The translations under genes were made by a program, and so were the position numbers. Positions 3,222-49,687 of a stretch of 64,000 nucleotides of DNA are shown here, in pieces. Origin of the DNA: Candidatus Poribacteria bacterium (GTDB lineage: Bacteria; Poribacteria; WGA-4E; WGA-3G); NCBI GenBank assembly GCA_965205025.1, contig CBDBFU010000014.1, forward strand, positions 192,001 to 256,000, read 5' to 3'. Positions within the stretch are counted from its first letter, which is position 1. Each line of letters begins with the position of its first letter. The notes under the pieces were generated by a model. The model searched no databases and was not told where the DNA came from. It was given only the letters and a program-made list of their open reading frames with translations.

Positions 3222-3995
3222 ATGAGATTTGTAAGTGTTTTCATCACGTTATTTTTCTGTCTGAGTGTCATTACAGTATTGGCATTAGAACCAGATGATG
3301 AGGCTATTGTTGGTGTATGGCTATTTGAAGATAATGCTGATGATTCATCACGGAACAAAAATGACGGTAAGATTAATGGTGATTTCAAATTCGAAGACGG
3401 AAAATTTGGAAAAGCAGTTGTCGCAGCGGGTGGTGGTAGTATTGATGTACAGGATTCAAACAGTATAAAATCCATCAGTGATGAATTGACTGTGGCAGCA
3501 TGGTTCCGTGTGGATGCTGACTCCGATACTGGTGTCAGGAAAAATGGTGCATTCCTACTTGAAGACCAATCTGCTGGTGAACCCATCCCTGATGGTTTTT
3601 CCTTCAGAATCTGGACTGACCAAGGCATTACACCAGGTTTCTATGGAAAGACAAAATTAGAACAGAAGAAGTGGCATCATGTCGCTGGCACTTATGACGG
3701 TACAAAGGTCGAAATGTATGTTGACGGTAAACCTGATAGTGAAAATGGGGCACTCGCTGACAATAAAGGAGATTGGAAACCGGAATGGGGTGGTAAGGTG
3801 CAAGCAGGAGGGGTCTTACAACTTAAGTTCGGTCCAGAATCTTTCACTGGTGGAATAGACGAAATCATAATACTTAGCCGTGCCCTTGAAGCTGATGAAA
3901 TTAAACAACTGTTGAACGGTTGGGATGAGGCTTTTGATGTAGAACCCCAAGGAAAACTGGCAACGACATGGTCTCGTATAAAAGCCACACGATAA
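3222..3995 (+). CDS. Secreted LamG-like jellyroll domain protein with C-terminal KLATTW motif
   Basis: Signal peptide, WLFED/WHHVAGTYDG/GIDEIII LamG pattern, ends VEPQGKLATTWSRIKATR; GGAGG RBS. Confidence 0.88.
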   Translation: MRFVSVFITLFFCLSVITVLALEPDDEAIVGVWLFEDNADDSSRNKNDGKINGDFKFEDGKFGKAVVAAGGGSIDVQDSNSIKSISDELTVAAWFRVDADSDTGVRKNGAFLLEDQSAGEPIPDGFSFRIWTDQGITPGFYGKTKLEQKKWHHVAGTYDGTKVEMYVDGKPDSENGALADNKGDWKPEWGGKVQAGGVLQLKFGPESFTGGIDEIIILSRALEADEIKQLLNGWDEAFDVEPQGKLATTWSRIKATR

Positions 3996-4080
3996 ACTAA
4001 CAGATGTGCGGGATACTTTTTGTTGATTCTCGCACATTTATTTTAATTACAAAATTATCACAATCACAGTAATTATTCCA

Positions 4081-5604
4081 TTAATTATCGAAATCAAATG
4101 AGACTTGCTGATCTACATTACCAAACGATAATAACTTTTTGATCTTCCCCGGTTGTGCCCAATTACACTTGCCACTTCCATTAAGTTGACGAAGCAATTC
4201 AGGAATTTCTGGATTTTCAAGACCAGTTTTTATCCGTTGGGCATCGTCTTTAGACCAGCACGGTATAAACGCATGCATCGCTTGATTCCCTTGCCACATC
4301 TGTCCATTTACATTATCTAAAACAATAGGAGTAAAGTGACTCTTGCCATAAGCTTGCCAAATCACTTTGTACGGTGCAAAAGAATAAGGACCAACACCCA
4401 ACATTGCCCACCAATTACCTCTATTCATAGACGCTCGTAAAAGAGTTCCTTTTCGTTCTTTTAATCTATCCTCACTACTAAGTAGATACTTCTTTAGTGT
4501 CTCATGTTTTTCGATTTGACTCCAAGACAAAGGTTTTCCTGTATCTCGATTGTAGGGTAAGAGAATCCATTTATTAGGAACTGAATTCTCACCATGCCAT
4601 ATTTCCTTAGTTGCCAATGGAAACATAAATTCATCTGGAAGGTTTTTTGGTTTCTCTTCAAAAATGAAAACACTGTTAGCTCCACATGTATTCACACCCT
4701 GGCGAGGTTTTTGCTCAGATGATAATTTAATATCAAAAATCTCTCCAGGAAGTATTTCATCAGCATTTTGTATAATTCGCCACGGATCGGTACGGTCTCT
4801 CAACGGTATAGCTTTATGTTCAACCCAATCGTCGTTCACCTCCCTAAAATATCTAACAGGGAACTTCTGTGGTTTATCACTGATGAATCTGGCACAGCAA
4901 TATCCAGTATTAACACCTTCAAATACCTTTGTCGTAGAGAATTCATAAACTGTATCCACAGCAAAATCTCTCTGGGAATTTGAGAGTATATCTGAACTCT
5001 TTGAAGAATAATCCCTAAATCCTCTATGAGCACCCTCACCAAAGAATAATGATGTAGGTATATAGAAATAAGCTGCTCCGTTTTCTTTTAACAGTCTTCC
5101 AAGGGCAACCTTTAATACCAATGCTGCAATATCTATCCGAGAAGATCCCAGCAACATACGTTGGGTATTTTCAACAAGTCCTTCCTGTATAAAATAAGGC
5201 TTTAAATGCTCTTTATAAGAATCTGGCAGGTCTCCGAAATTTGCCCATGGAGGATTCCCTATAAGTATATCGTATTGTCTATGATGGCGTTGGGTTATGA
5301 CATCCTGAAAGTGAATTTGCGAGGTAGGAAAGTCTACTGAGAATTCTGATTGTATGTTCCTCTTAAACTGGTTAAGGAGGGATGGAACCATCTCAATTAG
5401 CGTCAAACGAGACAATCGTTCTGTAGTTATGGGTACACCTTTCTCTTCGGCAATTTGCAACATTGCCAATGCAAATATCCCTTGTCCTGCTGTGGGGTCA
5501 CATATTTGGGCACCATCAACCCAGGCTTCTATAATATTCCACTTGTTGATAAGCCATTTTGCCCAGTTAAGCGGTGTGAAAACCAGTCCAATTTTTTTAT
5601 TCAT
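4081..5604 (-). CDS. Amino (N6-adenine) DNA methyltransferase, gamma-type motif order
   Basis: VFTP (motif X), DPTAGQG (motif I), ILIGNPPW (motif IV), C-terminal TRD-like region. Confidence 0.85.
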   Translation of the reverse strand: MNKKIGLVFTPLNWAKWLINKWNIIEAWVDGAQICDPTAGQGIFALAMLQIAEEKGVPITTERLSRLTLIEMVPSLLNQFKRNIQSEFSVDFPTSQIHFQDVITQRHHRQYDILIGNPPWANFGDLPDSYKEHLKPYFIQEGLVENTQRMLLGSSRIDIAALVLKVALGRLLKENGAAYFYIPTSLFFGEGAHRGFRDYSSKSSDILSNSQRDFAVDTVYEFSTTKVFEGVNTGYCCARFISDKPQKFPVRYFREVNDDWVEHKAIPLRDRTDPWRIIQNADEILPGEIFDIKLSSEQKPRQGVNTCGANSVFIFEEKPKNLPDEFMFPLATKEIWHGENSVPNKWILLPYNRDTGKPLSWSQIEKHETLKKYLLSSEDRLKERKGTLLRASMNRGNWWAMLGVGPYSFAPYKVIWQAYGKSHFTPIVLDNVNGQMWQGNQAMHAFIPCWSKDDAQRIKTGLENPEIPELLRQLNGSGKCNWAQPGKIKKLLSFGNVDQQVSFDFDN

Positions 5605-5715
5605 TCAATTGAGTAAATACCTTAACTAATGTGAGACTTTCTTGACTTCCATAATATGTATAGCAGGACGTAAACTGTGATGTAGACAAAGATAATCCAG
5701 TCCATACATACTTAT

Positions 5716-5766
5716 AAAGTATATCAGAATAACAATTGTATTACAAATACCATCAAAGTATATCAG
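5716..5766 (-). promoter_or_regulatory. Two copies of a possible extended -10 element upstream of the methyltransferase
   Basis: 12-bp direct repeat aaagtatatcag at 5716 and 5755, reading TG-a-TATACT on the minus strand. Confidence 0.35.
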
Positions 5767-5767
5767 T

Positions 5768-11987: not shown

Positions 11988-13406
11988 ATGAATATTATCT
12001 GTATCTGTTTAGACACGTTTCGAGCGGATATAATTGGTCAAGGAAAGAAGTTTAGCCATGTTCAGACCCCTAACCTTGATGCGTTTGCTTCTGAGAGTGT
12101 TCGATTTACAAATGCCTTTGGTGAGGGACAACCTACACTACAGATCCGCAGGGGGAATTTCACAGGAATGCGGAGTTTTCCGTGGAGATATAATTTTGAC
12201 CGACGTGGCCATTGGCATCATGCACCCGGATGGCATAAAATACCACCAGAACAAGATACTATTGCTGAGGTGTTGTTGGATCGTGGTTATTTAACTGCTC
12301 TCATTGCAGATACATACCACATGTTTAAACCGACGATGAATTTCTCGCGGGGATTTGCACATTTTGATTTCATTCGTGGACAAGAATCAGATAATTGGAA
12401 TAGTGGTGATCCGAGATTGATTGAGGATACTCTACGTAACCATGTCAGTGAACCTATTAATTGGAAACGGCATGCAGGATTGGTAAACTACCTCCTATCT
12501 CAAAGGCATCGAAAAACAGAAGACGATTACAGTTGTGCGCGTGTATTTCGTTCTGCTGCTGATTGGCTACAGGATAATCATACGGTTGGACCATTTTTCC
12601 TATGGGTAGATAGTTTTGATCCACATGAGCCGTGGGATCCACCAAAATCTTACGCGGACATCTATATGTCTGACTATACAGGTAAAGATTTTATTATGGG
12701 TGGTGCTTCATCAGAAGAGGAATTAGATAGGGTTGAAGCACTCTATCTTGGTGAAGTGACTTTTGTTGATAAATGGGTTGGGGTATTATTAGATAAGATT
12801 GAATCACTTAACATCCGGAATGAAACCCTTGTTCTTGTGATGTCTGACCACGGCACACAACTTCGGGATCACGGTAGTTTTGGCAAAGGTGCAAATAAAC
12901 TACATCCCTTCAACACACAACTGAATCTGATGATACGACATCCTGAAGGACCACATGACAAAGATATATCTGCGTTTGTGCAGAACCATGATCTTATGCC
13001 TACTTTACTAAATATGGTTGATATTCCGTGCGGATGGACTGATGGTGAGGATATGTGGCAGCTTGTTAAAGGAGAGAAAGCATATCTGCGTGAACGAATT
13101 ATTACGGGTTGGGCAGGTTTTACAACAGGGAACGCTGTTGGTCGGGTAAGTGTTCGTGATAACCGCTGGAATTTCTGTACTTCTGTCGGGTACAAAGATG
13201 AGAAGGGTGATCAACTATTTGATGTACGAAACGATACTGAAGAAAAGAATAATATAGTGAATGATCACCCAGATATTGTTTCTGAACGACGTAGGGATGT
13301 AGAAGCATTGATAGGGCAGCCATTACCTGGACATTTTATAGAGGTATGTGATCCTGGACATGCTCCAATGCGGCAATGGCTACAGAAGAAGTTATCAGAG
13401 ATGTAA
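11988..13406 (+). CDS. Sulfatase-like alkaline phosphatase superfamily hydrolase
   Basis: ICLDTFRAD, FDPHEPWDPP, SDHG; the CxPxR position reads PTLQIR. Confidence 0.85.
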   Translation: MNIICICLDTFRADIIGQGKKFSHVQTPNLDAFASESVRFTNAFGEGQPTLQIRRGNFTGMRSFPWRYNFDRRGHWHHAPGWHKIPPEQDTIAEVLLDRGYLTALIADTYHMFKPTMNFSRGFAHFDFIRGQESDNWNSGDPRLIEDTLRNHVSEPINWKRHAGLVNYLLSQRHRKTEDDYSCARVFRSAADWLQDNHTVGPFFLWVDSFDPHEPWDPPKSYADIYMSDYTGKDFIMGGASSEEELDRVEALYLGEVTFVDKWVGVLLDKIESLNIRNETLVLVMSDHGTQLRDHGSFGKGANKLHPFNTQLNLMIRHPEGPHDKDISAFVQNHDLMPTLLNMVDIPCGWTDGEDMWQLVKGEKAYLRERIITGWAGFTTGNAVGRVSVRDNRWNFCTSVGYKDEKGDQLFDVRNDTEEKNNIVNDHPDIVSERRRDVEALIGQPLPGHFIEVCDPGHAPMRQWLQKKLSEM

Positions 13407-17277: not shown

Positions 17278-19764
17278 CTATTTTACTTTTCTTAGTAAAT
17301 CTCTAAGATAATTTGAAGGAACAGCGAAGTTGATATTTTGTGCGCGATTTACTTTTGCTTTCGGATCAACCCTATAGTATGCCAATGTAGCGATTCCCAC
17401 GACATTACCTTTATTGTCTAATACAGCTCCACCACTACTCCCTGGTGAAATAGCAGCTGTCATTTGTAACCATTTGCTTTTTCCTGTATCTCTAATGCTA
17501 CTTATTATACCATCTGAAACAGTTCCTTCTAATCCTTCAGGATTACCAACAGCATAGATTTTCTCACCTACTTCGACCAGATCGCTATTGGATAAAGATA
17601 ATGGGTTTGTTGTTGCCCCAGAAACTCTTAGTATAGCAAGGTCATGTTCTATATCAGTTGCTTCTATGCTCTCTACCTTGAACCTAATAGTCGTATCTAC
17701 TAATCTTGCCGTTATCAATGAAGATCCTTTAATAACATGGTAGTTTGTCGCAATTAAATCACGTCGTACAAAAAAGCCACTTCCTAAACCAACTACATCA
17801 CCCTTCGCATTTAGTCTGTTGAGGAACACAGTTGACGACAGTGCTTCTTGAGCAATTTGTTGTCCAGTTAGTTGAAGGTTAGATTGTTTTGTTCTTGAAT
17901 TATCGTTAGGTGTAATGTGTTTATTGGGTAAATCCTTTTCTTGCTGATGTAGACTCTCTTTAAGTTTGTCCATATTACAGATAAATATTGAACCGTTTTC
18001 ACAACCAATAATCAATGATCTTTGATCCTTAGAAAAAACAATTGAAGTTATTTCACTTGGGTATGGGAGTAATGATATTTGCCCCTTGCTTTCAAAATTC
18101 TGTTGATATTGAGCTAATAAAATCTGACCCTTTTTATTCCCTATGAGAAGTATTGAATCTTCATGTCGATATCCTAAAGCTGATATAGTACCGATTGGTC
18201 CTAAATCAATACCATTTCCTATTTCTCTTCCAGTTAAGGCATCCCATTTCCTGAGAGTACCATTTTGTTCCCCACTGAATAATATGCTACCATCTGATGA
18301 AAATGTTAAAGATGTGATAGGGTGCTGTGCCCCTGTGAGTTTCTTTAACACTCTTTCAGTTTGAATATTAAATATATAGATGTTCCCGTCGGCACCACCT
18401 GTAGCGATCACAGAATTTCTTGGTGATATTGCTAAAGCTGAGATTCCATGCGGATTTCCATTAAATCTATGAGAAACAGTTGTCGTCTGAATTGAATTTT
18501 TGTTACTAAGAATTTTCTGTACTTCAGATAAAAACACAGTTCCATCATAGCTGCCTCCACTTGCGACATGTCTTCCATCATTAGAAAATATAACGGATTG
18601 GGTTAGATCAAAATGATCCCGTATTGTAGAAAGTTCGCTGCTTGTACCTGCATCCCATATTCTGAGTTTTCCATCTAAACCTGTACCACTTGCCCGAATA
18701 CGATTATCTTCAGTATACACTAATGCTTTTATCCTACCAGTATGTCCAGAAATGTCAAACTTTTTCCTCTCTCCAATTACATCCCATACAAACACTGTTC
18801 CATCTGGACTTCCACTTACAATAATCTTACTATCAGATGAACAGTCAAGTACAGAAACTTGGTCTTTATGGCCTTTTAATGGATTCTGTTGTTCGGTATA
18901 TGTCTGTGTATTCCATATTCGTATTAACTTGTCAGCACTTCCAGTAACTAATGAATTACCATTGGATAGATAACTTACTGTATAGACTGGACTCTCATGT
19001 GAGATTGTAGAGTTGAGTTTCCCACCGACACCAACTAAACTCCATACTCTAACCGTTTGGTCTGTACTGGCACTGACTAACTTTTTTCTGTCAGGCGAAA
19101 AAACTACCTGTTCAACAGGTTTTGTATGTTCAGTAAATAAGTAAATCTGATCACCTGTATTTGCATCCCATACTTGAATAGTTCCATTTACACTACCACC
19201 CGCTACTAATTGACTATCAGACGAGAAAGCAACAGTCAACACGGTATCTCTATATGGTAATAATTTCGATTCTATTCTATCCCTATGATGAGCAGGAAAA
19301 TTTGCAAGATTCCATAGTCTAATATTGTTATCTGCACTGGCACTTGCAAGTTTTGATCCATCAGGAGAGTATGTTAAATCATATATTTTCTTATTATGTC
19401 CCCTAAGAGTGTTTTTTTCTATATCCTGGTTTCTTCTGACAAGATTCCATAATCTTATGGTTCTATCTTGATGGGCTGCGGCTATGTACCGTCCATCAGG
19501 AGAATATGAGATAGCGTTTGCACCACCCATAATCCCTTCGAATCTATGCACTTCACGACCTGTCCTGCTATCATATATCCAAATACCAATTGTAGTTGCT
19601 ACGGCAAATTGGTCCCCATTAGGAGAAAATTTTATATCCTGAATCCATCCTTTTCCTAAGCGTTCTTCAACGAAGGCTGGAAGATTATCTTGAGCAATTA
19701 AATGTGGTGTGATAATTAAAATGAGAACTTCACAGAATAATAACAAATACAATAATTTCTTCAT
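17278..19764 (-). CDS. Secreted WD40-repeat protein fused to a C-terminal trypsin-like serine protease
   Basis: Signal peptide, roughly 13-14 WD repeats, protease triad motifs ATNYHV, DLAIL, ISPGSSGG. Confidence 0.92.
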   Translation of the reverse strand: MKKLLYLLLFCEVLILIITPHLIAQDNLPAFVEERLGKGWIQDIKFSPNGDQFAVATTIGIWIYDSRTGREVHRFEGIMGGANAISYSPDGRYIAAAHQDRTIRLWNLVRRNQDIEKNTLRGHNKKIYDLTYSPDGSKLASASADNNIRLWNLANFPAHHRDRIESKLLPYRDTVLTVAFSSDSQLVAGGSVNGTIQVWDANTGDQIYLFTEHTKPVEQVVFSPDRKKLVSASTDQTVRVWSLVGVGGKLNSTISHESPVYTVSYLSNGNSLVTGSADKLIRIWNTQTYTEQQNPLKGHKDQVSVLDCSSDSKIIVSGSPDGTVFVWDVIGERKKFDISGHTGRIKALVYTEDNRIRASGTGLDGKLRIWDAGTSSELSTIRDHFDLTQSVIFSNDGRHVASGGSYDGTVFLSEVQKILSNKNSIQTTTVSHRFNGNPHGISALAISPRNSVIATGGADGNIYIFNIQTERVLKKLTGAQHPITSLTFSSDGSILFSGEQNGTLRKWDALTGREIGNGIDLGPIGTISALGYRHEDSILLIGNKKGQILLAQYQQNFESKGQISLLPYPSEITSIVFSKDQRSLIIGCENGSIFICNMDKLKESLHQQEKDLPNKHITPNDNSRTKQSNLQLTGQQIAQEALSSTVFLNRLNAKGDVVGLGSGFFVRRDLIATNYHVIKGSSLITARLVDTTIRFKVESIEATDIEHDLAILRVSGATTNPLSLSNSDLVEVGEKIYAVGNPEGLEGTVSDGIISSIRDTGKSKWLQMTAAISPGSSGGAVLDNKGNVVGIATLAYYRVDPKAKVNRAQNINFAVPSNYLRDLLRKVK

Positions 19765-35823: not shown

Positions 35824-36441
35824 TCAGAGTTCAGAATTAACACTCTTGAGATGTTGATGTGCAACAATTGCCCAATCAGTGCCTTGTGCTTGATCTTTAA
35901 CTCGATTCAGTTGACTAACTCTATCCCATTTATCGGAATTTCGTAGGTGTCGATTGCGGAGTACATCTTCCATATTGCGTTGTATCTCCTGATGCCTATA
36001 CTCTTGTATCTTCAGATGTGCAGAATCAGTTACATTCTCTTCATAGGTTGACACATATTGAAAGGGATCAGTTAAAAGAAATGTAATTCCAATCACAGCA
36101 ACAATAAACAGAGAAAATACTGCTGCTTTTTGTTGATATATCAGAGTTAGTAGATTCGATACTCGTGCTGCTAAGTTTGAATGTTTTGTAGGTATAACTG
36201 TATTCTCAGCAGCGATGCGTTTGTAGAGTTTTGTCTGAAGGTTTTTTGGCATGCTAAGATTATGAGCGTAAACACCTTCAGCGTCATCAACAAGTTGAAG
36301 CACACGTTTATAGGAATTGACCATTCTTGTGCATTTATTACAAGTCATTAAATGTACCTTATAATTATCCATTTTAGATGGATCAAATTCACCAAATACA
36401 TAGTCAATAGCATGCGCCTCAGACATATTACATTTGGGCAT
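35824..36441 (-). CDS. Zinc-binding anti-sigma factor with TM helix
   Basis: HLMTCNKC (HxxxCxxC) motif, central TM helix, directly downstream of an ECF sigma. Confidence 0.85.
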   Translation of the reverse strand: MPKCNMSEAHAIDYVFGEFDPSKMDNYKVHLMTCNKCTRMVNSYKRVLQLVDDAEGVYAHNLSMPKNLQTKLYKRIAAENTVIPTKHSNLAARVSNLLTLIYQQKAAVFSLFIVAVIGITFLLTDPFQYVSTYEENVTDSAHLKIQEYRHQEIQRNMEDVLRNRHLRNSDKWDRVSQLNRVKDQAQGTDWAIVAHQHLKSVNSEL

Positions 36442-36452
36442 ATAATTACCTC

Positions 36453-37046
36453 CTATATTTCATTGTTTTCCATTAATGGTCTTAATAGAGTCTGTAATTT
36501 CTTCATTGCACGGTGTAAATGAATTTTAACTGTTCCTTCCGCCATACCTAAAGTTTCTGCTACTTCTCTAATTGGTAAACCTTCATATCGAGTTAGCATA
36601 AATACTTCTTTTTGCTTTGATGAGAGTTCGTCCACAGCTTCACGAATAATACGTCCACGTTCAATATCTTCAACTTGTTTTTCGGGATTACTTGATAAAT
36701 CTGTTGCTACGAGTTTTGTTTCTAATACCTCTTCATCTTCCAACACATAGACTGGATGTCGAGACTTAGACCTATGATAATCAATTGAAAGATTTGATGC
36801 AATGGTATATAACCAAGTTGAGAATTTTGCTTTCGGTTCCCATGAAGATAAAGCACGATAAGCTTTAAAAAAGACTTCAAGTGTTAGTTCTTCGGCATCT
36901 TCATAATTTCTTACTGATCGTAGGAGATAACCAAAGATTTTACGTTCATAACGTTTCATCAATTCATCAAATGCTCTTTGGCTTCCTGATTGGAATTGTT
37001 TAACGAGTATTTCATCATCTATTAATTTGTCCATATTATGTGCCAA
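36453..37046 (-). CDS. ECF RNA polymerase sigma factor
   Basis: DAEELTLEVF, KFSTWLYTIASN, EVAETLGMAEGTVKIHLHRA. Confidence 0.95.
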   Translation of the reverse strand: MAHNMDKLIDDEILVKQFQSGSQRAFDELMKRYERKIFGYLLRSVRNYEDAEELTLEVFFKAYRALSSWEPKAKFSTWLYTIASNLSIDYHRSKSRHPVYVLEDEEVLETKLVATDLSSNPEKQVEDIERGRIIREAVDELSSKQKEVFMLTRYEGLPIREVAETLGMAEGTVKIHLHRAMKKLQTLLRPLMENNEI

Positions 37047-37267
37047 TCTTTCGTTTTGATTCCATCATCATATTCATTTAACGGATAAGGGAATAATTAA
37101 GTTTACAGTATTTCCTTTTCATAAAGTAATTCTAAATTGGCAATTTGTGCTTCGATTTCAAGTATGGGTATAAATACATTAAAAACTGAAACATAATTAA
37201 TTGTGTGGAAATATATTTGTAGTTTGGATAAAATAAAATTAGATGATTTTATTCGGAGGTATTAAGG

Positions 37268-38298
37268 TGGCAACTACACATAAAAATCCTCAAGGATCAC
37301 CGTTAGTAATTCCTGCATCGGAAACCGCAGAAAATATGGTGAAAGTAGCAGTGGATTTTTTGGATGGATTACCAACAGAATTACGAGAGAAAGCATCTGA
37401 ACCGTTTGACGGTAATGAAAGATTCCGTTGGCATTACATTCCTATTGAAATGTGGGAACGTCAAGGTGTATCATTACAGGAGTTGGATAGTAAACAAAAG
37501 GAATTAGCTTTTGCACTTATGGAAAGCGGTTTGAGTGCAAAAGGATATGAAAAAGCTCAAGCAATTATTAATTTAGAAACAACACTTGGTGAGATAGAAA
37601 AAGCGTCAGGAGATGGGAAACTTGAACGAAATCCTGAATACTATTTTTTTACAATCTTTGGTGATCCAACTGGAAATGGGGCATGGGGATGGCGTACAGA
37701 AGGACACCATATTTCATTGAATTTTACAATTGTCAATCGAGAGCTTATTTCACCGAATCCTTTTTTCTTTGGGTCTAATCCTGCAGAAGTTCTACAAGGT
37801 GATAAAAAAGGACTACGAGTTCTCTTAGCTGAAGAAGATCTCGCACGTCAACTTCTCACAAGTTTTACACCGTACCAAAAGACTAATGCAGTTATAGATA
37901 CGGAGGCACCATCAGATATACTCACAAGGAATGCTCCGAAAGTAGAGTTTGATGCTGTAGAGGGATTAGCTGTAGAAACAATGGAAACACATCAACGGGA
38001 ACTGTTGATGCAGCTTCTTAATGAGTATATTGATAGGCTTCCTGATGAGATGGCTGAGATTGAACGACGAAAATTACGTGAAGGGAGTTTCAACGATATT
38101 CACTTTGCATGGGCTGGTGGAGAGGAAAGAAGAATGCCACATTATTATCGATTACATAGTCCATTCTTCTTCGTGGAATATGATAACACACAGAATGATG
38201 CCAATCATATCCACTCAGTATGGCGTCATATTGAAGATGATTTTGGTGGGGATTTGCTTCGATTACACTACCATAAATCTAAACATCATAGTCATTAG
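37268..38298 (+). CDS. DUF3500 domain protein
   Basis: YFFTIFGDP, WGWRTEGHHISLNF, VEYDNTQNDANHIHSVWR, DFGGDLL; probable GTG start after GGAGG. Confidence 0.85.
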
Positions 38299-38308
38299 TA
38301 TTGACAAA

Positions 38309-38345
38309 AAACAAAAAAGCCACCAAAAAGGTGGCTTTTTTGTTT
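38309..38345. terminator. Bidirectional intrinsic terminator
   Basis: aaacaaaaaagccacc-aaaaa-ggtggcttttttgttt. Confidence 0.85.
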
Positions 38346-38368
38346 GTCATCTATATTCTATACAAAGA

Positions 38369-39211
38369 TTATTTAACGGATTTAATTGTACTCCAGGTAG
38401 TGGCTAATTTACCTGCGGGTTCAACTGGGGTAGGAGTGTTTGAGCTAAGCACAACGAGTCCAGTCTTTTCAGGATTTTTCCCATAGACAACAGCATGGGG
38501 GTACCAACCATCCCATCCCTTTTGTCCAGTTTGTCCGCCACCCTTATCACCATCATTAACACAAATACCTAATCCAATTTCAAGTCCTGCAGTAAGTGAA
38601 ATTGAAAGTCCAAAATTTGCAGGTGTGAATTTGAACTCATAATATGTCTTCTTAGCGCCTTCATCTCTGACAATAGCAACATCATCTGCTTCGAGTCCAG
38701 GAGCACCATTGGTTCTTTCATTCTGTAGAAGGATATCTCCGTTATCATGTAGTCCAACGTTATAAAGAAAGAATGGTTGTCCACCAGCACGATTCCCACT
38801 CGGAACAACAGATAGTTGAGCACCATCACCATTCCAAGCAGCACCCGCAGCATGTTCATGTTCGTCATCTGTGACGCTTAGTGCCAGATATACTGCATCC
38901 GGATTCCAAGCAATCATGAAACATGTTGTATGATCATCAGCATCATTCCAAACACCTGTTTGGTATGTTTCAAATGTCTTTATGACACCACCGTTAGCTT
39001 CGAATTCAAGACCACAAAACGGAGAACCATCGGTACCAGTGACAGCGTCCATGACACCATCCCATTCATCAAGTTTACCGTCAATGGTCACATCTAATCC
39101 AGTAACAGCATTGTATACATCATGAGTTTCACTACGCCATTGCGCATCTGCTATGTTTAATGTAAACAGGACTACGAAAATAGTAGTCATAATAAAAACG
39201 TATTTTTTCAT
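38369..39211 (-). CDS. Secreted CBM9/DOMON-like sugar-binding protein with KLATTW tail
   Basis: Signal peptide, IDGKLDEW, YLALSVTDD, WNGDG, YEF, VNDGD; ends VEPAGKLATTWSTIKSVK. Confidence 0.78.
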   Translation of the reverse strand: MKKYVFIMTTIFVVLFTLNIADAQWRSETHDVYNAVTGLDVTIDGKLDEWDGVMDAVTGTDGSPFCGLEFEANGGVIKTFETYQTGVWNDADDHTTCFMIAWNPDAVYLALSVTDDEHEHAAGAAWNGDGAQLSVVPSGNRAGGQPFFLYNVGLHDNGDILLQNERTNGAPGLEADDVAIVRDEGAKKTYYEFKFTPANFGLSISLTAGLEIGLGICVNDGDKGGGQTGQKGWDGWYPHAVVYGKNPEKTGLVVLSSNTPTPVEPAGKLATTWSTIKSVK

Positions 39212-39377
39212 AAAAGATTTCCTCAATACAGAATTGACCTTAGGTCGTTATTTTGGTTAGTAGATTTGAAATTACATTATTAATATTCATTATGATATTT
39301 CTTCTTATGAAAGAATATCATCGTTTATTTATAGTAAATAAGTATTAGGCTTACTAATACTTATTTCAGACTAATAC

Positions 39378-40205
39378 TTATTTCAGGGATTTTATATTAC
39401 CCCATGTGGTTGTTATTTTATTTATAGGATCAACGGCGAGGGTTTCATCTGTGAGAATTACCAAACCAGTTTTATCTGGATTTTTCCCATGGACAATAGA
39501 ATGTGGATACCAACCTGACCAACCTTTTTGCCCACCTTGTCCAGCTGCTTTATCTCCATCGTTAACACATATTCCAAGTCCAAATTGTAACCCTTCTTTA
39601 AATGGATCTTTATACCCTAAATTATCTGGTGAAATTCTAAATTCATAGTATGTCTTCTTTTTTACTTCATCACGTACAATTACAACATCTTCACCTCCAA
39701 CAAGACCGGGATTCCCACGGGTTGTTTCATTTTGGAGTAATAGGTTTTTGGCATCATCAGACAATCCAGCATTATAGAGTATATCGGTTCTGGCAGGTTG
39801 ACGTTTCCCAGTAGGTTCAAAAGCGAGTTGTGCACCATCACCATTCCATGCTGCTCCTGCTGCATGTTCATGTTCATCATCGGTGACATCCAAAGCAAGA
39901 TAGACATACTCTGGGGTCCAAAGAATCATAAAACATGTTTCATGGTCGTCCGGACCTTTCCAATTTCCACCACCGTGTGCTTCAAAAACACCTTGTTCAT
40001 TTTTAATGCCGCAGAAAGGTTTTCCATCAGTTCCTTTAACTGCATCTAAAACACCATCCCAATCATCAAGATTTCCATCTATTTTTATGTCGGTGTCTGC
40101 TTGAAGAGCATTATATTTGTCATGTGTTGCATGCCGCCATTGAGCATTTACTGATACACTTGTTATGAAAAATAATAGAATTATTATGTATGTAGACTTT
40201 CTCAT
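39378..40205 (-). CDS. Secreted CBM9/DOMON-like sugar-binding protein (tandem paralog) with KITTTW tail
   Basis: Same motifs as the neighbour; ends VDPINKITTTWGNIKSLK. Confidence 0.78.
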   Translation of the reverse strand: MRKSTYIIILLFFITSVSVNAQWRHATHDKYNALQADTDIKIDGNLDDWDGVLDAVKGTDGKPFCGIKNEQGVFEAHGGGNWKGPDDHETCFMILWTPEYVYLALDVTDDEHEHAAGAAWNGDGAQLAFEPTGKRQPARTDILYNAGLSDDAKNLLLQNETTRGNPGLVGGEDVVIVRDEVKKKTYYEFRISPDNLGYKDPFKEGLQFGLGICVNDGDKAAGQGGQKGWSGWYPHSIVHGKNPDKTGLVILTDETLAVDPINKITTTWGNIKSLK

Positions 40206-40312
40206 TTCTTTATCTCCTATTTCAGATATATCTTTAAATATATATAAGTATAACCTAAACAAAACCTAATAATTAAACGATTTTAACAGTGATTTATTTA
40301 TTGAAAGTACTG

Positions 40313-41842
40313 TTAACGGTCTTCAAATGATCCAGCACCCTTGTCTCCACCTAAACAAAAGACATACCGTCCACTTGAACCAATGTATAGATTGCCATTA
40401 GCAATTACGGGTGAAGAAATGAACTTTAATCCATTTGAAACAGAATTAGCATCATATATCCACTCAATGTCACCATCAGATAGATCCAGTGAGAATATTC
40501 TCCCGTCATAAGTTGCAGCGTAAACTGATTGTTCTGTTACGGCTGGGGATGAAGCTACAACGGCATTTAGATCCACACTCCAATTTAATTCTCCATCTAA
40601 AGCACTGAGATTATAAACATGTCCATCTTTGGAACCAAATATCACCTGTTCGTTTTTAACGCAAATTGCTGACATCACAGCATCCCCAACTTCATATTCC
40701 CAAACTTTTTTACCGGTTTCCATATTTAATGCAATTACACTACCTTTTGGAATTGGTGCACTTTCTGAAAAATTACCTCTACCGAGTCCAAAATAGATAA
40801 TGTTGTCATAAGAACTTGGGCTACCCCAAACAGGATAGGCAGTGGGTGTAGACCAGATTTCCTTCCCCGTCATAGCATCTAAGGCATAGGTACGATATTC
40901 ACCATAACCTGTACCAAAATAGACCTTCCCATCTTTAACTATCGGTGCCATATCTGCATGAACAGCAGGAAAATGCCAAATCTCTTCACCTGCCAGAGCA
41001 TCTAAACAATACACACCATCTCCACCAGCCGTAAAATAAAGTCTCCCTTGAATAATATATGGTGTGGATTCTACGTGACTTGCTGTCTTAAAACTCCAAA
41101 TGGGATCACCTGTATTAGCATCAAGACAGCGGAGTCTACACCCAGTATCATAGTGATAGCCTTCACCAATATATACCCGTCCTGCAACAACTGCTGGAGA
41201 TGATATGATAGGGATATCAGAATCATGTTGCCAAATCAACTTATTCGTTTCTATATCAATACAGTAAGTAGCACCGCTAACAGATAAGATCGCTCCATGT
41301 GTCGCACCTATAAATAGACGATTCCCAACTATTGCAGGTGATGATGAGAGTTCTACTGCCATAGCTTCTTTGGATTTAAATATCCAATTAATGTTATTCG
41401 TTAAGGGACCAGGTAGATCGTCTAAATGTCCTGTACGATTAGCATTACCTCTAAATGTTGGCCAGGATTGTGTGTTGGTTACTAATTCTGTTTTCGATTT
41501 CTCAGGTTCTACTGTTATAGGGGGAGTTGGCTTGACATTCCTACCTACAAGTTGAAAGGTTAACACAGCTAAAATAACTAAAACTAAGATACTAATTAGT
41601 GAACCTATTTTGTTGGCGAAAACAAAATTACGTAGTCTATAGAATAACATCTTTGTCGTATCACGTGCAAAAACAAGACTGGTTACGACAGCGATTCCAA
41701 CAAAAGCAAGAATTTGAGGTATTATACTAAGTAGTGCAGAAAGAGGACCCAGTAGCTGGGGAATGACTGCATAAGCAGATGCTGTAAAACAGAAGAAAAC
41801 TGAAACGATTATCAAAGGTATAAGTATTCTAATTCTGTTCAT
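40313..41842 (-). CDS. PQQ-like beta-propeller repeat protein (BamB-like repeats), membrane anchored
   Basis: WPTFRGNANRTG, repeated SSP.V..G.VY.G...YCLDA.TG..IW; N-terminal hydrophobic segments. Confidence 0.87.
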   Translation of the reverse strand: MNRIRILIPLIIVSVFFCFTASAYAVIPQLLGPLSALLSIIPQILAFVGIAVVTSLVFARDTTKMLFYRLRNFVFANKIGSLISILVLVILAVLTFQLVGRNVKPTPPITVEPEKSKTELVTNTQSWPTFRGNANRTGHLDDLPGPLTNNINWIFKSKEAMAVELSSSPAIVGNRLFIGATHGAILSVSGATYCIDIETNKLIWQHDSDIPIISSPAVVAGRVYIGEGYHYDTGCRLRCLDANTGDPIWSFKTASHVESTPYIIQGRLYFTAGGDGVYCLDALAGEEIWHFPAVHADMAPIVKDGKVYFGTGYGEYRTYALDAMTGKEIWSTPTAYPVWGSPSSYDNIIYFGLGRGNFSESAPIPKGSVIALNMETGKKVWEYEVGDAVMSAICVKNEQVIFGSKDGHVYNLSALDGELNWSVDLNAVVASSPAVTEQSVYAATYDGRIFSLDLSDGDIEWIYDANSVSNGLKFISSPVIANGNLYIGSSGRYVFCLGGDKGAGSFEDR

Positions 41843-41864
41843 TATTAGATCCCTCGTTATAATG

Positions 41865-43031
41865 TCATTTTATAGTTGCCACAGCAAAATGTATAAGGTT
41901 TTCAAGCATATAGCGATTCTTTGCAGCTTTTTCTTTACTATTATTATGTAGGTTCGTTATCAGATACATACCTTTCCCATGTCGCAATTTAGCAACAACA
42001 ATTTCCTTTCCATTGTTTGTTGTTGCAAGTATCTCAAATCTATCATTCCAACCGCTCCATGAATCATCAAGGGCAAGTTGTCCAGAACGAATACGGTGTG
42101 GTGTCTTAAATAATGAACCTGCTAAAGATGTGGACTTGAAATCATTTCTGTGATTACTTTCAACCCCATTCAATTTATGTGGTAACCAACCAGTTTTACA
42201 AGGATTATCATCATCGCTGTCTTGTCCCGAAACAATGACAATACCACCATTTTTTACAAATTCTTTTATTTTTTTCTCTTGATTGTCATTAAGCCTGTAC
42301 CTCCCATCACGTCCAATAGATCTACATCCAATCCATAATATTTCAGCATTACTGAGTCCAGGCAAATTACGATCAGTTGTTTGATGATAAGAAATCCATT
42401 GCTTATCTACTTTATTTATCTCCGAGATAATTGGAATTTCTGCCTGATATCTTTCATCATGAAAAAGATGTAACTGTATAGCATTTTTACCAAGCATCGC
42501 ATTGAGTTCTTTTTGGAATTCTTGGGTTGAATCTCTTCGTGTGACTTGGTCTTTATTAAAGTATTTCTCAAAGTGTGTGAATCCCCACCAACCCCATTTT
42601 CCATTCTGTCTTGTGACTTGGGTTTGAAACCATTTTCCTCTTGTGTGTGCAAGACTATCAATTCTTCTATCATTTTTTAAATAAAAGATAATAATTGGTT
42701 CATCCACTTTTAGAAATTTGCTAATTTGGTCTCTGTGATCTTCCTCACCTTTATATACGTCAAACCTGATTTTGATCTCTTTGAAGTCACTTTTTCCTTT
42801 TAAATACTTCTCTACATTTACTGTGGCATTTTTTCGCTTAGTATTAACTTCTTTGACTGTGCCAAAAAGGACATTACTGCTTTCACCAATGATTTGGGGT
42901 ACAGTATAACGCTTTGTAATATAAGCATTAGCGTTATTCTGTGAAAAGAGTAATGTAATTAGACATACTGCTATTAAATATAATAGAAATCTGTAATATG
43001 ATAGTTTAGTATACTTACTTAATATATGCAC
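41865..43031 (-). CDS. Hypothetical secreted protein, C-terminal domain possibly GATase-like fold
   Basis: Signal peptide; IKEFVKNGGIVIV and HGKGMYLIT patterns. Confidence 0.6.
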   Translation of the reverse strand: MHILSKYTKLSYYRFLLYLIAVCLITLLFSQNNANAYITKRYTVPQIIGESSNVLFGTVKEVNTKRKNATVNVEKYLKGKSDFKEIKIRFDVYKGEEDHRDQISKFLKVDEPIIIFYLKNDRRIDSLAHTRGKWFQTQVTRQNGKWGWWGFTHFEKYFNKDQVTRRDSTQEFQKELNAMLGKNAIQLHLFHDERYQAEIPIISEINKVDKQWISYHQTTDRNLPGLSNAEILWIGCRSIGRDGRYRLNDNQEKKIKEFVKNGGIVIVSGQDSDDDNPCKTGWLPHKLNGVESNHRNDFKSTSLAGSLFKTPHRIRSGQLALDDSWSGWNDRFEILATTNNGKEIVVAKLRHGKGMYLITNLHNNSKEKAAKNRYMLENLIHFAVATIK

Positions 43032-44545: not shown

Positions 44546-44555
44546 CTTCGTTCAG

Positions 44556-46234: not shown

Positions 46235-46770
46235 TCGATTTTCCCTCGTAAAATATTAAATTATTGCATGCAATATACATTATATAGTTGTCCTTATAAT
46301 CACATCCTGTATAAATACATTTGATGTATAAGTATACCAGATAGAATAGCGAAGTGCAAACTATATTTGAGAGTATTCAATATTTAACGAACTTAGTTAC
46401 AACGCAGTGTACTATTAACATTTAGTGTTTTACATTTCACATACCCGTCCCGTTTGGGTTCAATTCTAAGACTTTCTGATACCTGAAAACTTCAAAGGTA
46501 TGAGGGAACTCCTATTCCCAACTACAAACAGGCCACAATTCGGAGATCGCTCTTACATATATGAACATTTATGAAATGCAACAAAACTGCTGTCTAACTG
46601 ATACAAAACGATACTAAGTAAATAATATTACTTGAATTTCGAATTATTGGTTTAGTTGTAATTAAATATGGTTATTTTGGCTTCTATTTTAATTTGGTTT
46701 TATAGATATATCATGTTATTATTTATTAACTATATAAGCAAGATATTATTATGTCATTTTGGAGGTATTT

Positions 46771-47235
46771 ATGGCAGAAAAAGGAAGCGCAGCTCCAGAT
46801 TTTACTTTATCAGGATCAAATAATCAAGATGATACGGAAGTTTCATTAGGTGATTATAAAGGGAAGAAATTAGTAGTTTTATTTTATCCCCTTGATTTCT
46901 CACCAGTGTGTTCGGAACAGGTCCCCGATTTCAATGAGAATTTAGAAGCAATTAGAGCAAAAGGTGCTGACGTAGTTGCTATAAGTCGAGATTCAACCTT
47001 TGCACACAAAGCATGGAGTGAAACCCTTGGTGGTGTAGATTTTCCACTCCTTTCAGATATGAATCTTGAAGTATCAAAGAAATTTGGAATGGCACTTGAA
47101 GAAGTAGGTATTACAACTCGAGGTGTATTTATAATTGATCAATCTGGAAATATAGCATTTAAACACGTTGAAGATGCACCACCAGATAATACATTGACTG
47201 CTAAACAGGTTGTTGAAGAACTTGATAATTTGTAG
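46771..47235 (+). CDS. Peroxiredoxin (1-Cys, AhpE-like)
   Basis: FYPLDFSPVC, RGVFIID; single Cys; GGAGG RBS. Confidence 0.9.
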   Translation: MAEKGSAAPDFTLSGSNNQDDTEVSLGDYKGKKLVVLFYPLDFSPVCSEQVPDFNENLEAIRAKGADVVAISRDSTFAHKAWSETLGGVDFPLLSDMNLEVSKKFGMALEEVGITTRGVFIIDQSGNIAFKHVEDAPPDNTLTAKQVVEELDNL

Positions 47236-47396
47236 GTCTTGCTACATCATGATAGGAAGGGATGGGTAATCTTAATTATCCGTCCTTTCTATATAGTCCA
47301 CATACGACTTTATCAGAGAGTAGTATAATTCTAAAACTTCAGTCACATCCTGTCTTTAAACACCTATTTTATTATCTTTTCTATACTATCTATTTC

Positions 47397-47425
47397 TTGA
47401 CAATCCACCCATGATATGGTATAAT
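47397..47425 (+). promoter_or_regulatory. Consensus sigma70 promoter of tRNA-Gly
   Basis: TTGACA-17 bp-TATAAT with extended TG, 13 bp upstream of the tRNA. Confidence 0.85.
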
Positions 47426-47438
47426 TCCTATGATGGGT

Positions 47439-47510
47439 GCGGGTGTAGCTCAGCGGTAGAGCATCAGCTTCCCAAGCTGAGGGTCGCGGGTTCAATTCCC
47501 GTCACCCGCT
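47439..47510 (+). tRNA. tRNA-Gly (CCC)
   Basis: gcgggtg/cacccgc acceptor stem, anticodon loop ttcccaa, GTTCAATTC T-loop; CCA not encoded. Confidence 0.95.
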
Positions 47511-47538
47511 TGTAAGTCATAAAATCATTGAGGATATC

Positions 47539-48687
47539 ATGTCACAAAAAAGACGTATAATGAATGAAGAAATAAAACAAGAGGATAAGTTTATTGATCT
47601 TGTTTTTGCATGTTATTCATTCATAAAAGACAATGCTAAGATAATTACGATTGTTACTGCAGTGGTAATTGTTGGAGTTGTTGGGTATATTGTCTATAAT
47701 CAGAATCAGGAAAACACTTACGCTAAGGCATCCGCCCATTATTCTGAAGCAATCACTACATATAAAGATGCAGAGAAAGATTTCTTAGACACATCTGCAC
47801 CCACTGATGAAACTGAAAATAAGGAAGAAACTGAAAAACCTACATTTCCTGAAGCCGAAGAAAAACTTAAGGCGTTTTTCCAGAAATATCCTAATACTAT
47901 ATTTGCAGATAAAGCACGTTACCAATATGCCAAAAGTCTATATTATCAAGAAAAATATCCTGAGGCACGGAATGAATTTCAGGTAGTAGTGGACAATCAT
48001 AAAGCAGAAAATGAACTTATTGCATTGTATGCACAAAAGGCTATTGGCAACTGTTACGAACAAGAGAAAAACTACACTAAAGCAATTTCCGCCTATGAAG
48101 CAAATTCATTTCCGACAACCTCGAATCTCTCTACACAAATTAGACAGTATGTCATAACTGGTGCAAAATTCAATCAAGCTCTCTGTTATGAAAAGCTCAA
48201 TGAAATTGAAGATGCTAAAGTCGCATATCAAGATGTTATTGACGAATTTGAAAAAACAATACAGTCTGGTTTAGATCAGAAAAGTCATGATTTACTCAAT
48301 CATGCAAAAGATGTAATCAGTGTTATTGAAGATTCAATAGATCTAACACAAGCCACAAAATTAGAGACTGATGAGCTTTTCTTTGATGCACTTATAGCCT
48401 ATACAGATGTAATACGGGATTACAAGGTATCAAAGGATATTAGCCATGGGTTGCCAAAAGATATTCGTAAACGCATCAAAATTTACGAAGATTTAGCAAC
48501 ATCCTTTATTAAAAATGTACAATTAGCAAAGGAAGCAGAAAAAAATGAAAACCATAGTTCTGCATTGAATAGTTACAATCGAATTACAAACCTAACAGAT
48601 TTAGGATTAAATAGAAATGTTTATGAACGCGCTCATCTGAATTATGACCGTCTAAATCTTTCAGCACAAGTGGTGTCAAATGAATAA
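47539..48687 (+). CDS. Membrane-anchored TPR protein (YfgM-like N-terminus)
   Basis: N-terminal TM helix then TPR units (KYPNTIFADKARYQYA). Confidence 0.8.
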   Translation: MSQKRRIMNEEIKQEDKFIDLVFACYSFIKDNAKIITIVTAVVIVGVVGYIVYNQNQENTYAKASAHYSEAITTYKDAEKDFLDTSAPTDETENKEETEKPTFPEAEEKLKAFFQKYPNTIFADKARYQYAKSLYYQEKYPEARNEFQVVVDNHKAENELIALYAQKAIGNCYEQEKNYTKAISAYEANSFPTTSNLSTQIRQYVITGAKFNQALCYEKLNEIEDAKVAYQDVIDEFEKTIQSGLDQKSHDLLNHAKDVISVIEDSIDLTQATKLETDELFFDALIAYTDVIRDYKVSKDISHGLPKDIRKRIKIYEDLATSFIKNVQLAKEAEKNENHSSALNSYNRITNLTDLGLNRNVYERAHLNYDRLNLSAQVVSNE

Positions 48688-49687
48688 TTCAAGCTATAAT
48701 ATAATACAAACAAAAGTAAGAAATGCAATTTCATTAACTATATTTTGTGTATTGCTGATTTTTCCACTGAATGTTTACGCTCAACCACAAGGTAGAATTG
48801 CGTATGCCGTATCTGGATTCAATGACAAAGTAGGTAGATTAGATTTTAATCTCCATATGACAACTTTCACACCAGATGGGGATTATAAGACCCTACCCTT
48901 AAACCAAACAGGAATGTATCCTGCTTGGGGACCAAAAGGGGATACTCTCTACTTCATTCAGCGCGCTGCCACCCAATCAGATGTATATTCAATAGATATC
49001 AATAACCCAAGGAATAAAACGAAACACACCCCTATTAGTGGGACATACAGATTCCTTGCAGTATCACCAAATGGTAAGAAGTTGGCATTTAACGGCTGGA
49101 CAAATGAACAAAAACAACAAGACAACCAGATTTGGGTACTTGATATTGCTTCCGGTGAAATGGAAGTGATGACACAAATTCCTCATTTTGGTAGATCCTT
49201 CTTTTTTTGGGGCATTACTTGGTCACCAAATAGTAAACAACTTGCCTTCTCTCTGGAAAGATCAGGTGGTTTAGATCAATTATACATATTAGATACTGAA
49301 ACAAAAGAGATTGATATATTAACAGAACTAAATATTGATTTATATCCGGTATGGGCACCAGATGGGAAGAGTATTTTGTTCCGCAGATGGAATAGGGAAT
49401 TTGATACCTTAACTACTATTGATGTTGAGACACGAGCCATCAAACCTTTATTTGATGTTGATAAATTTACAGGTATGTGGACAGATTGGTCGTTTGACGG
49501 ACAACAAATTATCTATTCTCGTTGGGGTGTTTTTTATCTTCATAATCTTGAAGATGGAAAGACTGAGCAATTGTTTGAAATTGAAGGTAGTATATTTGTG
49601 ATTTCATGGTGGAAACATGAGGTATTACCTGTGGCACCACGAGAAAAATTAGCTACCACATGGGGAACTGTAAAACAAAGGAATTGA
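48680..49687 (+). CDS. Secreted TolB-like (PD40) beta-propeller protein with KLATTW tail
   Basis: Signal peptide, PAWGP/VSPNG/WSPNS/WAPDG repeats; ends VAPREKLATTWGTVKQRN. Confidence 0.85.
   Translation: MNNSSYNIIQTKVRNAISLTIFCVLLIFPLNVYAQPQGRIAYAVSGFNDKVGRLDFNLHMTTFTPDGDYKTLPLNQTGMYPAWGPKGDTLYFIQRAATQSDVYSIDINNPRNKTKHTPISGTYRFLAVSPNGKKLAFNGWTNEQKQQDNQIWVLDIASGEMEVMTQIPHFGRSFFFWGITWSPNSKQLAFSLERSGGLDQLYILDTETKEIDILTELNIDLYPVWAPDGKSILFRRWNREFDTLTTIDVETRAIKPLFDVDKFTGMWTDWSFDGQQIIYSRWGVFYLHNLEDGKTEQLFEIEGSIFVISWWKHEVLPVAPREKLATTWGTVKQRN

Follow-up and report, generated by a model that had tools for sequence, protein, structure and literature searches.

A conserved, disordered C-terminal tail on unrelated exported proteins of Poribacteria: a candidate envelope sorting or docking signal

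INTRODUCTION

What is the purpose of a short and almost identical ending shared by exported proteins that otherwise have no fold in common? This question is raised by a stretch of 64 000 nucleotides from a Candidatus Poribacteria bacterium (contig CBDBFU010000014.1, positions 192,001 to 256,000 of the forward strand), referred to here as the window, with all coordinates counted from its first nucleotide. Four genes for exported proteins in the window end in a common C-terminal tail of ∼18 residues, which an earlier note on this DNA took for a lineage-specific secretion or surface-anchoring signal. C-terminal sorting tags of other bacteria have led to the proteins that read them, including sortase, exosortase, rhombosortase, myxosortase and the T9SS (type IX secretion system). 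Here we report that the tail is a phylum-wide feature of Poribacteria, that selection acts on it as a peptide and that it is predicted to be disordered on two different folds, and we consider the proposal that it is a linear tag read by an envelope receptor after Sec export, together with four alternative explanations.

RESULTS

Four exported proteins in the window end in the same tail

Four open reading frames (ORFs) carrying the tail are present at the positions given in the earlier note, whose tail ends there include the stop codon. The claim that three unrelated folds lie under the tail is also borne out, since Pfam identifies Laminin_G_3, CBM9_1 and PD40 domains in these proteins. The genes, their putative signal peptides and their tails, the latter scored with a profile hidden Markov model (HMM) of the tail, are as follows.

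3222..3995, plus strand: LamG (Laminin_G_3) exported protein of 257 residues, tail carrier (ORF; Pfam match at residues 71–228, E 4e-21)
3222..3284, plus strand: putative signal peptide of the LamG protein, residues 1–21, ending in V-L-A (hydrophobicity heuristic on the translation)
3939..3992, plus strand: C-terminal tail of the LamG protein, VEPQGKLATTWSRIKATR (tail HMM 45.0 bits; 18 residues with a predicted local distance difference test score (pLDDT) below 50)
38369..39226, minus strand: CBM9-like exported protein of 285 residues from the longest start, tail carrier (ORF; Pfam CBM9_1, E 1.1e-7)
38372..38425, minus strand: C-terminal tail of the first CBM9-like protein, VEPAGKLATTWSTIKSVK (tail HMM 37.3 bits)
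39378..40262, minus strand: second CBM9-like exported protein, 294 residues from a TTG start, tail carrier (ORF; CBM9_1, E 1.4e-6); its true start is probably the internal Met at 40205
39381..39434, minus strand: C-terminal tail of the second CBM9-like protein, VDPINKITTTWGNIKSLK (tail HMM 36.0 bits)
48680..49687, plus strand: PD40 β-propeller exported protein of 335 residues, tail carrier (ORF; Pfam PD40, E 5.2e-17)
48680..48781, plus strand: putative signal peptide of the PD40 protein, residues 1–34, ending in V-Y-A (heuristic on the translation)
49631..49684, plus strand: C-terminal tail of the PD40 protein, VAPREKLATTWGTVKQRN (tail HMM 36.6 bits)

All four carriers appear to begin with a hydrophobic N-terminus that has an A-x-A-type end, as read heuristically from their translations. 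The label ‘TolB-like’ previously given to the fourth protein did not hold: it scores 72.4 bits with TIGR02800 against a cut-off of 343.15, and it is treated here as a PD40 propeller only.

The four tails share the pattern V-x-P-x-x-K-[LI]-[AT]-T-T-W-[GS]-x-[IV]-K, followed by three further residues. Within this pattern, K-[LI]-[AT]-T-T-W-[GS] occurs in four copies in a six-frame regular-expression search of the window, all in one register to the stop codon and none internal, and no fifth copy of the tail was found in the window either with a degenerate regular expression or with the tail HMM run over all six-frame ORFs. The back-translated DNA pattern has four matches in the window, compared with none in 100 dinucleotide-preserving shuffles.

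The tail is a phylum-wide feature of Poribacteria

The reach of the tail was assessed by scanning a collection of species-representative genomes with a DNA pattern for P-x-x-K-[LIVMF]-[AT]-T-T-W-x-x-[LIVMF]-K that does not contain a stop codon. The scan gave at least 143 matches, in 127 distinct ORFs, at a minimum of 123 genome loci, where a pattern of ∼36 bits is expected to match by chance about ten times, or up to a few tens of times, across the whole collection. Poribacteria stands in the title of 118 of the 123 listed loci; four are called ‘uncultured bacterium’ and one Paceibacterota. This distribution agrees with the earlier proposal that the tail is lineage-specific as far as is visible. 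The listed loci range in GC content from 36 to 63%, and their record titles include metagenome-assembled genomes (MAGs) from sponges, deep water, the Caspian and hot springs. One MAG (RKRO01) has at least five tail genes on its contigs, two of them in locus L029 and the others in L032, L115 and L116.

The Paceibacterota-labelled match (locus L104; JAQULB010000016.1, ∼281–400, minus strand) is the sole listed match titled with another phylum. Its ORF has a tail-like end four residues before the stop codon, without the V-[ED] signature, in a locus with a GC content of 38%, and it may represent a chance match or a mis-binned contig.

Searches at the protein level point to a large family. A word-indexed search, for which the query was 127 aligned 40-residue ends, scored 8000 candidates and placed at least 1307 clusters (90% identity) at E ≤ 10, and an exhaustive search of 1.84 billion proteins with a tail-only HMM of 30 positions gave 952 representatives (50% identity) at E ≤ 0.001. 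The top-scoring match of the tail HMM is nevertheless a false positive (P0275), a protein of 624 residues with tandem repeats of ∼57 residues whose matches, 11 stretches in all, are confined to the profile's linker half, and which has no W-G-x-I-K motif. The names given to tail proteins at NCBI are only ‘LamG domain-containing’ or ‘hypothetical’. Close relatives of the window proteins are listed there under Candidatus Poribacteria. Taken together, these searches confirm the tail as a phylum-wide feature of Poribacteria; its restriction to this phylum is well supported, short of proof.

The tail lies at the extreme C-terminus

The earlier note placed the tail always at the extreme C-terminus, and the larger samples agree with this. 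All 143 listed DNA-pattern matches sit 1–12 residues before the stop codon, 132 of them at 1–5 residues, and when the tail HMM was run on 2305 six-frame ORFs of at least 60 residues from the window and the loci, every one of the 170 hits ended 0–12 residues before the stop. The motif is present in 149 of the 150 matches listed from the exhaustive HMM search; it ends at most seven residues from the protein end in 140 and ten residues from it in two, and the seven proteins in which it lies 11–59 residues from the end are all fragments of 50–123 residues. In one orthologous group the motif is followed by a conserved trailer of 10 residues.

Selection acts on the peptide

Aligned on the tryptophan, the tails have the consensus [LTF]-[APS]-V-[ED]-P-x-[GD]-K-L-[AT]-T-T-W-[GA]-x-[LIV]-K, after which come 1–10 mostly basic or polar residues as a short trailer. 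In the set of 127 tails the DNA search pattern had fixed P, K, T, T, W and K; the valine at position −10 is found in 126 of them though the pattern did not impose it. In an alignment of 144 tails, which includes 17 looser variants, the tryptophan and the last lysine are the sole invariant columns, with V, P, K, T and T conserved at ≥90%. With the looser tails of neighbouring paralogues included, what is strictly invariant shrinks to W-[GA]-x-[ILV]-K.

Synonymous sites are randomised, with all four codons occurring at V, at P and at both T positions, and the four tail copies of the window are only 58–70% identical to one another in DNA. Since synonymous codons vary freely, selection acts on the peptide and not on a repeated DNA element, and an origin as a DNA repeat is ruled out by this variation.

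The tail is predicted to be disordered on two different folds

The hydropathy of the tail is low, averaging −0.33 on the Kyte–Doolittle scale for the core from the first to the last lysine, and the best 15-residue window within the last 30 residues of the 144 tails has a mean of 0.29 and a maximum of 1.55. A transmembrane anchor is ruled out by these values, as the earlier note had supposed.

The AlphaFold2 model of the mature LamG protein is a confident jelly-roll (mean pLDDT 88.7, from an alignment of 112 sequences), which a fold search relates to ConA-like lectins, and all 18 tail residues in this model have a pLDDT below 50. In the model of the PD40 propeller (mean pLDDT 71.2, from seven sequences), residues 279–301 are likewise below 50 and have no secondary structure. 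These two models rule out the tail as a structural part of the passenger fold, and the tail is predicted to be intrinsically disordered on both folds. A segment so strongly conserved and yet unpacked on two different folds is typical of a linear motif that another molecule recognises.

Passengers are small, exported binding-type modules

Among the 75 full-length carriers from the listed loci, Pfam identifies Laminin_G_3 in 41, CBM_4_9 in three, CBM9_1 in two, 3-keto-disaccharide hydrolase (DUF1080) in two, DUF4960 in two, a DUF3108-like domain in two and PD40 in one. Weaker matches are to F5/8 type C in three carriers, all just below the gathering score, and to DUF7383 in one, and the remaining 18 are without a Pfam match. 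The 31 full-length proteins of the tail-ranked search comprise 25 with Laminin_G_3, two with DUF1080, one with DUF4960, one Kelch propeller and two without a match. Judged by these family matches, the passengers are of at least nine types and are binding-type modules, few of them with a match to an enzyme family.

The carriers are small and remarkably alike in size, with a median length of 265 residues and 73 of the 75 at 200–300 residues, and the exhaustive HMM search gave no true hit above 311 residues. A signal-peptide-like N-terminus is recognised by the hydrophobicity heuristic in 74 of the 75; in a second set 35 of 38 pass the same heuristic, and the other three begin inside or after the signal region. 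The building of a tail HMM had been suggested beforehand as a check, and with it both the C-terminal position and the co-occurrence with signal peptides hold. A lipobox-like string is found in only 8 of the 75 carriers and is mostly unconvincing. Tail genes are also often arranged in tandem, and loci L001–L080 include no fewer than 12 distinct pairs spaced within 2 kb.

A dockerin occupies the site of the tail in one CBM9 orthologue

A search with the passenger only (CBM9 residues 28–266, without signal peptide or tail) was carried out and the best 120 of 250 relatives were inspected, so that the tail was recovered independently of the DNA pattern: it ends 76 of the 79 newly retrieved CBM9-family relatives. 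Two proteins, P0220 and P0221, have no tail; their sequences leave the family consensus immediately ahead of the tail position. P0256, a CBM9 orthologue, has a Dockerin_1 domain in the tail's place (residues 261–306; 30.0 bits, cut-off 22.9), which comes immediately after the conserved L-A-V, the usual starting point of the tail. In this single case an established docking module stands exactly at the usual site of the tail. P0256 also suggests docking of the cohesin–dockerin type in some Poribacteria.

Comparison with known families and sorting systems

No NCBIfam or Pfam model covers the tail even at E ≤ 10, whether whole proteins or isolated 30-residue tails are searched. The tail HMM gave only chance-level partial matches to PDB sequences (E 0.17–0.78), and the ESM Atlas returned only unnamed short clusters for the tail, at 0.79–0.83, below the meaningful 0.9. 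In the literature searched, no paper was found with the six- or seven-letter motif strings, and the five-letter string hits only unrelated papers among those listed; no description of the tail was found among the papers listed on Poribacteria together with sorting, LamG, dockerin or T9SS, and none of those listed ties Poribacteria to cohesin or dockerin. By these searches the tail is not assigned to a known family.

Kamke et al. (2014) noted possible TIGR04183-type domains on poribacterial repeat proteins and in single-cell genomes of Poribacteria found none of the structural genes for a T9SS, describing the secretion route as yet to be revealed; the tail is not mentioned in the available part of that paper (PMC3909097). 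Nor are Poribacteria mentioned in Haft's preprint, where seven attributes of small C-terminal sorting domains are listed (10.1101/2023.06.07.544157). The tail has five of the seven: it sits at the C-terminus, occurs in several copies per genome and opens with an invariant signature, and its carriers have N-terminal signal peptides and are otherwise unrelated. The attribute of a hydrophobic helix is lacking, the 15-residue window averaging 0.29, and that of two to five terminal basic residues is found in only part of the set, as at least two K or R follow the motif in 33 of the 144 tails, one in 70 and none in 41.

With the tripartite C-terminal signals (LPXTG/sortase, PEP-CTERM/exosortase, GlyGly-CTERM and MYXO-CTERM) the tail shares a short C-terminal homology that is lineage-restricted and has many copies per genome, a signal peptide, unrelated passengers, a basic-rich end (weak in the tail) and a Pro signature at the start, V-E-P in the tail and P-E-P in PEP-CTERM. 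It differs from them in having no transmembrane helix, the feature that defines the class, and in matching no curated model. Enzymes of the sortase, exosortase, rhombosortase and myxosortase types act on a membrane-anchored intermediate (PMC1569441), and a tail without a membrane helix therefore cannot be a substrate of this type.

The C-terminal domain (CTD) of the T9SS (TIGR04183/PF18962) resembles the tail in its Sec-exported, unrelated passengers, its place at the extreme C-terminus and the lack of a transmembrane segment. Typical T9SS cargo includes lectin-like modules and propellers, which overlap with the passenger types of the tail. However, the type A CTD is a folded seven-strand Ig-like β-sandwich (PMC4804311), whereas the tail has ∼18 residues, is predicted to be disordered without strands and has no TIGR04183 or PF18962 match at E ≤ 10. 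Since the final 22 residues of the CTD are reported to contain its targeting information (PMC4804311), a signal of the tail's length is plausible. No T9SS machinery was found in the window, where there is only a generic TPR similarity to PorW (78.2 bits, cut-off 250). By analogy, the logic of the tail would be closer to that of the T9SS C-terminal signal, read in the periplasm, but the tail is no CTD.

Dockerin of the dockerin–cohesin system (type I, PF00404) is similarly a C-terminal appendage on carbohydrate-binding proteins, where it provides docking on a scaffold. It differs from the tail in being a folded, duplicated calcium-binding module (Pfam model length 57; about 60–70 residues in size), whereas the tail has no Pfam match. 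Comparable to the tail is a short periplasmic targeting peptide of curli, the N-terminal 22 residues of CsgA: an unstructured stretch of ∼20 residues that guides a Sec-exported protein towards an outer-membrane route; the CsgA peptide is N-terminal and belongs to a single cargo family, whereas the tail is C-terminal and common to many families.

Gene neighbourhood of the tail genes

The 64-kb window has no sortase-like, T9SS or cohesin gene. In the 2-kb flanks of the tail genes at the fetched loci, 202 non-tail ORFs were found, which form 131 clusters. The largest neighbour cluster (18 members) consists of further LamG paralogues, most of them with looser tails. Other recurring neighbours are FG-GAP/UnbV_ASPIC proteins (9), PhyH (5), methyltransferase-like proteins (4), DUF6785 (4) and, with three each, sulfatase-like, extracytoplasmic function (ECF) sigma-like and ABC-2 permease proteins; the labels FG-GAP/UnbV_ASPIC, DUF6785 and ABC-2 are confirmed by Pfam, and the rest are readings of the sequences. 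No recurring neighbour family among the 202 ORFs resembles a sorting enzyme, and no partner is therefore proposed.

The FG-GAP/UnbV_ASPIC proteins, some of which also have TPR, adjoin tail genes in L008/L009, L012, L035, L052/L053, L054, L074 and L078; these nine ORFs represent about six to seven independent contexts among ∼75 loci, an enrichment that is unproven. Membrane proteins with DUF6785 (and DUF6784) adjoin tail genes in L059/L060, L066 and L076, likewise with unproven enrichment.

Directly upstream of the PD40 gene of the window, with its 3′ end overlapping the PD40 gene start by 8 nt, is a gene (47539–48687, plus strand) for a membrane-anchored TPR protein with TPR_21 and a YbgF/CpoB-like repeat (44.3 bits, below the cut-off of 90.1). 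The same pair of TPR and PD40 genes is found in L002, and the arrangement is reminiscent of the TolB–CpoB pairing known from Tol–Pal operons.

The two CBM9-tail genes belong to a region (35824–43031) that also contains a gene for an ECF sigma factor, one for a putative anti-sigma factor, a divergent DUF3500 gene, and genes for a BamB/PQQ-like propeller that has membrane helices at its N-terminus and for a 388-residue protein of no assigned function. In L032 and L046, too, the CBM9-tail genes have ECF sigma-like ORFs beside them.

Near the LamG gene, a sulfatase gene is followed by one for a radical SAM/SPASM protein whose C-terminus has a SEC-C motif (1–1917, minus strand). Because the sulfatase gene directly adjoins it, the radical SAM/SPASM protein is read as a sulfatase maturase, probably an anaerobic sulfatase-maturating enzyme. 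A second sulfatase gene lies at 11988–13406 (plus strand), and ORFs that read as sulfatase-like are found near tail genes in L007, L067 and L069. The LamG tail gene is preceded, 355 bp upstream, by an ORF with a lipobox-like N-terminus (2424–2867, plus strand), and an Eco57I-type methylase-like gene (4081–5604, minus strand) is directly downstream of it.

The window also encodes an exported protein of 828 residues (17278–19764, minus strand) in which WD40 propellers are joined to an HtrA/DegP-type trypsin domain (TIGR02037, 118.8 bits, residues 650–826); HtrA proteases usually carry PDZ domains where this fusion has WD40. Envelope-type ORFs without a Pfam or NCBIfam family are present at 57675–58895 (plus strand), which has a signal peptide and a faintly EpsL-like outer-membrane C-terminus (E 0.003), at 58955–60490 (minus strand) and at 41865–43031 (minus strand), in addition to the lipobox-like ORF at 2424–2867. 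A small ORF at 56264–56704 (plus strand) has nucleotidyltransferase substrate-binding and Pol-beta nucleotidyltransferase domains, and an N6/N4 DNA methylase gene lies at the window end (63177–63998, plus strand).

DISCUSSION

Our results suggest, with a probability that we put at about one half and by analogy with the systems compared above, that the tail is a Poribacteria-specific linear tag which an envelope receptor recognises once the protein has been exported by Sec, so that the carrier is docked or sorted to the outer membrane. In such a pathway the precursor would pass the inner membrane via Sec and its signal peptide would be removed, after which the folded lectin, carbohydrate-binding or propeller module would expose the flexible tail in the periplasm. 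A dedicated envelope protein would then bind the tail and either fix the module to a scaffold in the envelope or on the surface, or hand it over to an outer-membrane export route. The function would be akin to that of a dockerin or of the T9SS C-terminal signal, in a minimal unfolded form and without the membrane-anchored intermediate of the sortase type. Both the existence of the receptor and what it does to its cargo are what we infer here. We propose, more tentatively, that the tail belongs to a new envelope sorting or docking system, in which a bare disordered tag of ∼18 residues would be served by a dedicated receptor or translocon and carried only by small lectin-like modules, across hundreds of families.

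The reading of the tail as a sorting signal in the earlier note has held up on three points that could have gone against it: the motif is terminal and accompanied by signal peptides, it is predicted to lie outside the passenger folds and it was found in none of the families searched. The secretion or anchoring role which the note attached to it is still argued by analogy.

Several observations weigh against a tag read by an envelope receptor. Neither the window nor the 2-kb flanks of the loci yielded a receptor, translocon or processing enzyme, and the exchange of the tail for a dockerin is a single case, P0256. The signal-peptide calls rest on a hydrophobicity heuristic, and the restriction to Poribacteria on the at least 123 loci listed by the scan. 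Between 1 and 10 residues separate the motif from the carboxyl end, and recognition therefore cannot rely on a fixed register to the C-terminus. Finally, the pairing of PD40 with a YbgF/CpoB-like TPR protein could point to a purely periplasmic role, which would fit docking but not export.

Alternatively, the tail may be the site of a modifying or processing enzyme and serve maturation or stabilisation, not localisation; for example, a protease may act near V-E-P, the invariant Lys or Trp may be cross-linked, or Thr-Thr may be glycosylated. This is the best placed of the alternatives, although we consider it unlikely. It is favoured by the nature of the most conserved positions (W and the last K, with V, P, K, T and T at ≥90%), which are chemically reactive or bulky, by the exposed and disordered state of the tail in the models, which would make it accessible to an enzyme, and by the likeness of its initial Pro signature to sortase-type cleavage motifs (PMC1569441). 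However, no candidate enzyme recurs beside the tail genes, and the one radical SAM/SPASM protein near the LamG gene probably serves the sulfatase that it adjoins. An enzyme site would in any case overlap with a sorting tag, as in known systems modification and sorting usually form two stages of a single pathway, according to Haft's preprint (10.1101/2023.06.07.544157).

It is improbable that the tail acts as a peripheral anchor, holding its carrier to anionic lipid or lipopolysaccharide through the tryptophan and positive charge without a protein receptor. Some penicillin-binding proteins have C-terminal amphipathic anchors, and the tail does have one invariant Trp, an average net charge of +2.1 and a trailer with 32% K + R compared with 6% D + E. 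The hydropathy of its core (−0.33) and of its best 15-residue window (0.29) is nevertheless low, as is its hydrophobic moment (0.85 as a helix, 1.15 as a strand), no helix is predicted by AlphaFold2, and a generic membrane-binding peptide would not need conservation nearly as strict, position by position, as that seen at V, P, K, T, T, W and K.

A donor-strand mechanism, in which the tail would insert as a β-strand into a neighbouring subunit so that the β-sandwich proteins polymerise to fibres or a surface lattice, is very unlikely. It would suit the size and architecture of the carriers, which are small, single-domain and β-rich (73 of 75 at 200–300 residues), the tandem genes (at least 12 pairs within 2 kb among L001–L080) and the composition of the tail, which we read as favouring β-strand. 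However, jelly-rolls, CBM9 modules and the six-bladed PD40 and Kelch propellers cannot all share one acceptor groove, and AlphaFold2, given a deep alignment, did not place the tail back onto the LamG domain.

Least credible of all is a functionless relic of an expanding LamG family, copied to other genes by recombination at their 3′ ends, since Laminin_G_3 does dominate (41 of 75 carriers, 25 of 31 in the tail-ranked search and the whole top of the word-indexed search) but a functionless tail would decay, whereas V, P, K, T, T, W and K are near-invariant while synonymous sites are randomised, this conservation holds across loci with a GC content of 36–63%, and 76 of the 79 CBM9 relatives found without reference to the tail have kept it.

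The tail is abundant (952 representatives), almost invariant, confined as far as is visible to one uncultivated phylum and invisible to current annotation, and its profile provides a precise, computable handle for a search for partners by phylogenetic profiling. The modules that it marks are glycan-binding ones, which Poribacteria probably present to the sponge host or to marine particles. If the tail is indeed a linear tag read by an envelope receptor, it would represent a new class of bacterial C-terminal sorting signal and offer a handle on how an uncultivated, sponge-associated phylum builds its glycan-binding surface. Should it work without either a membrane-anchored intermediate or a folded domain, it would widen the design space of sorting signals, and it may possibly serve as a very short display tag.

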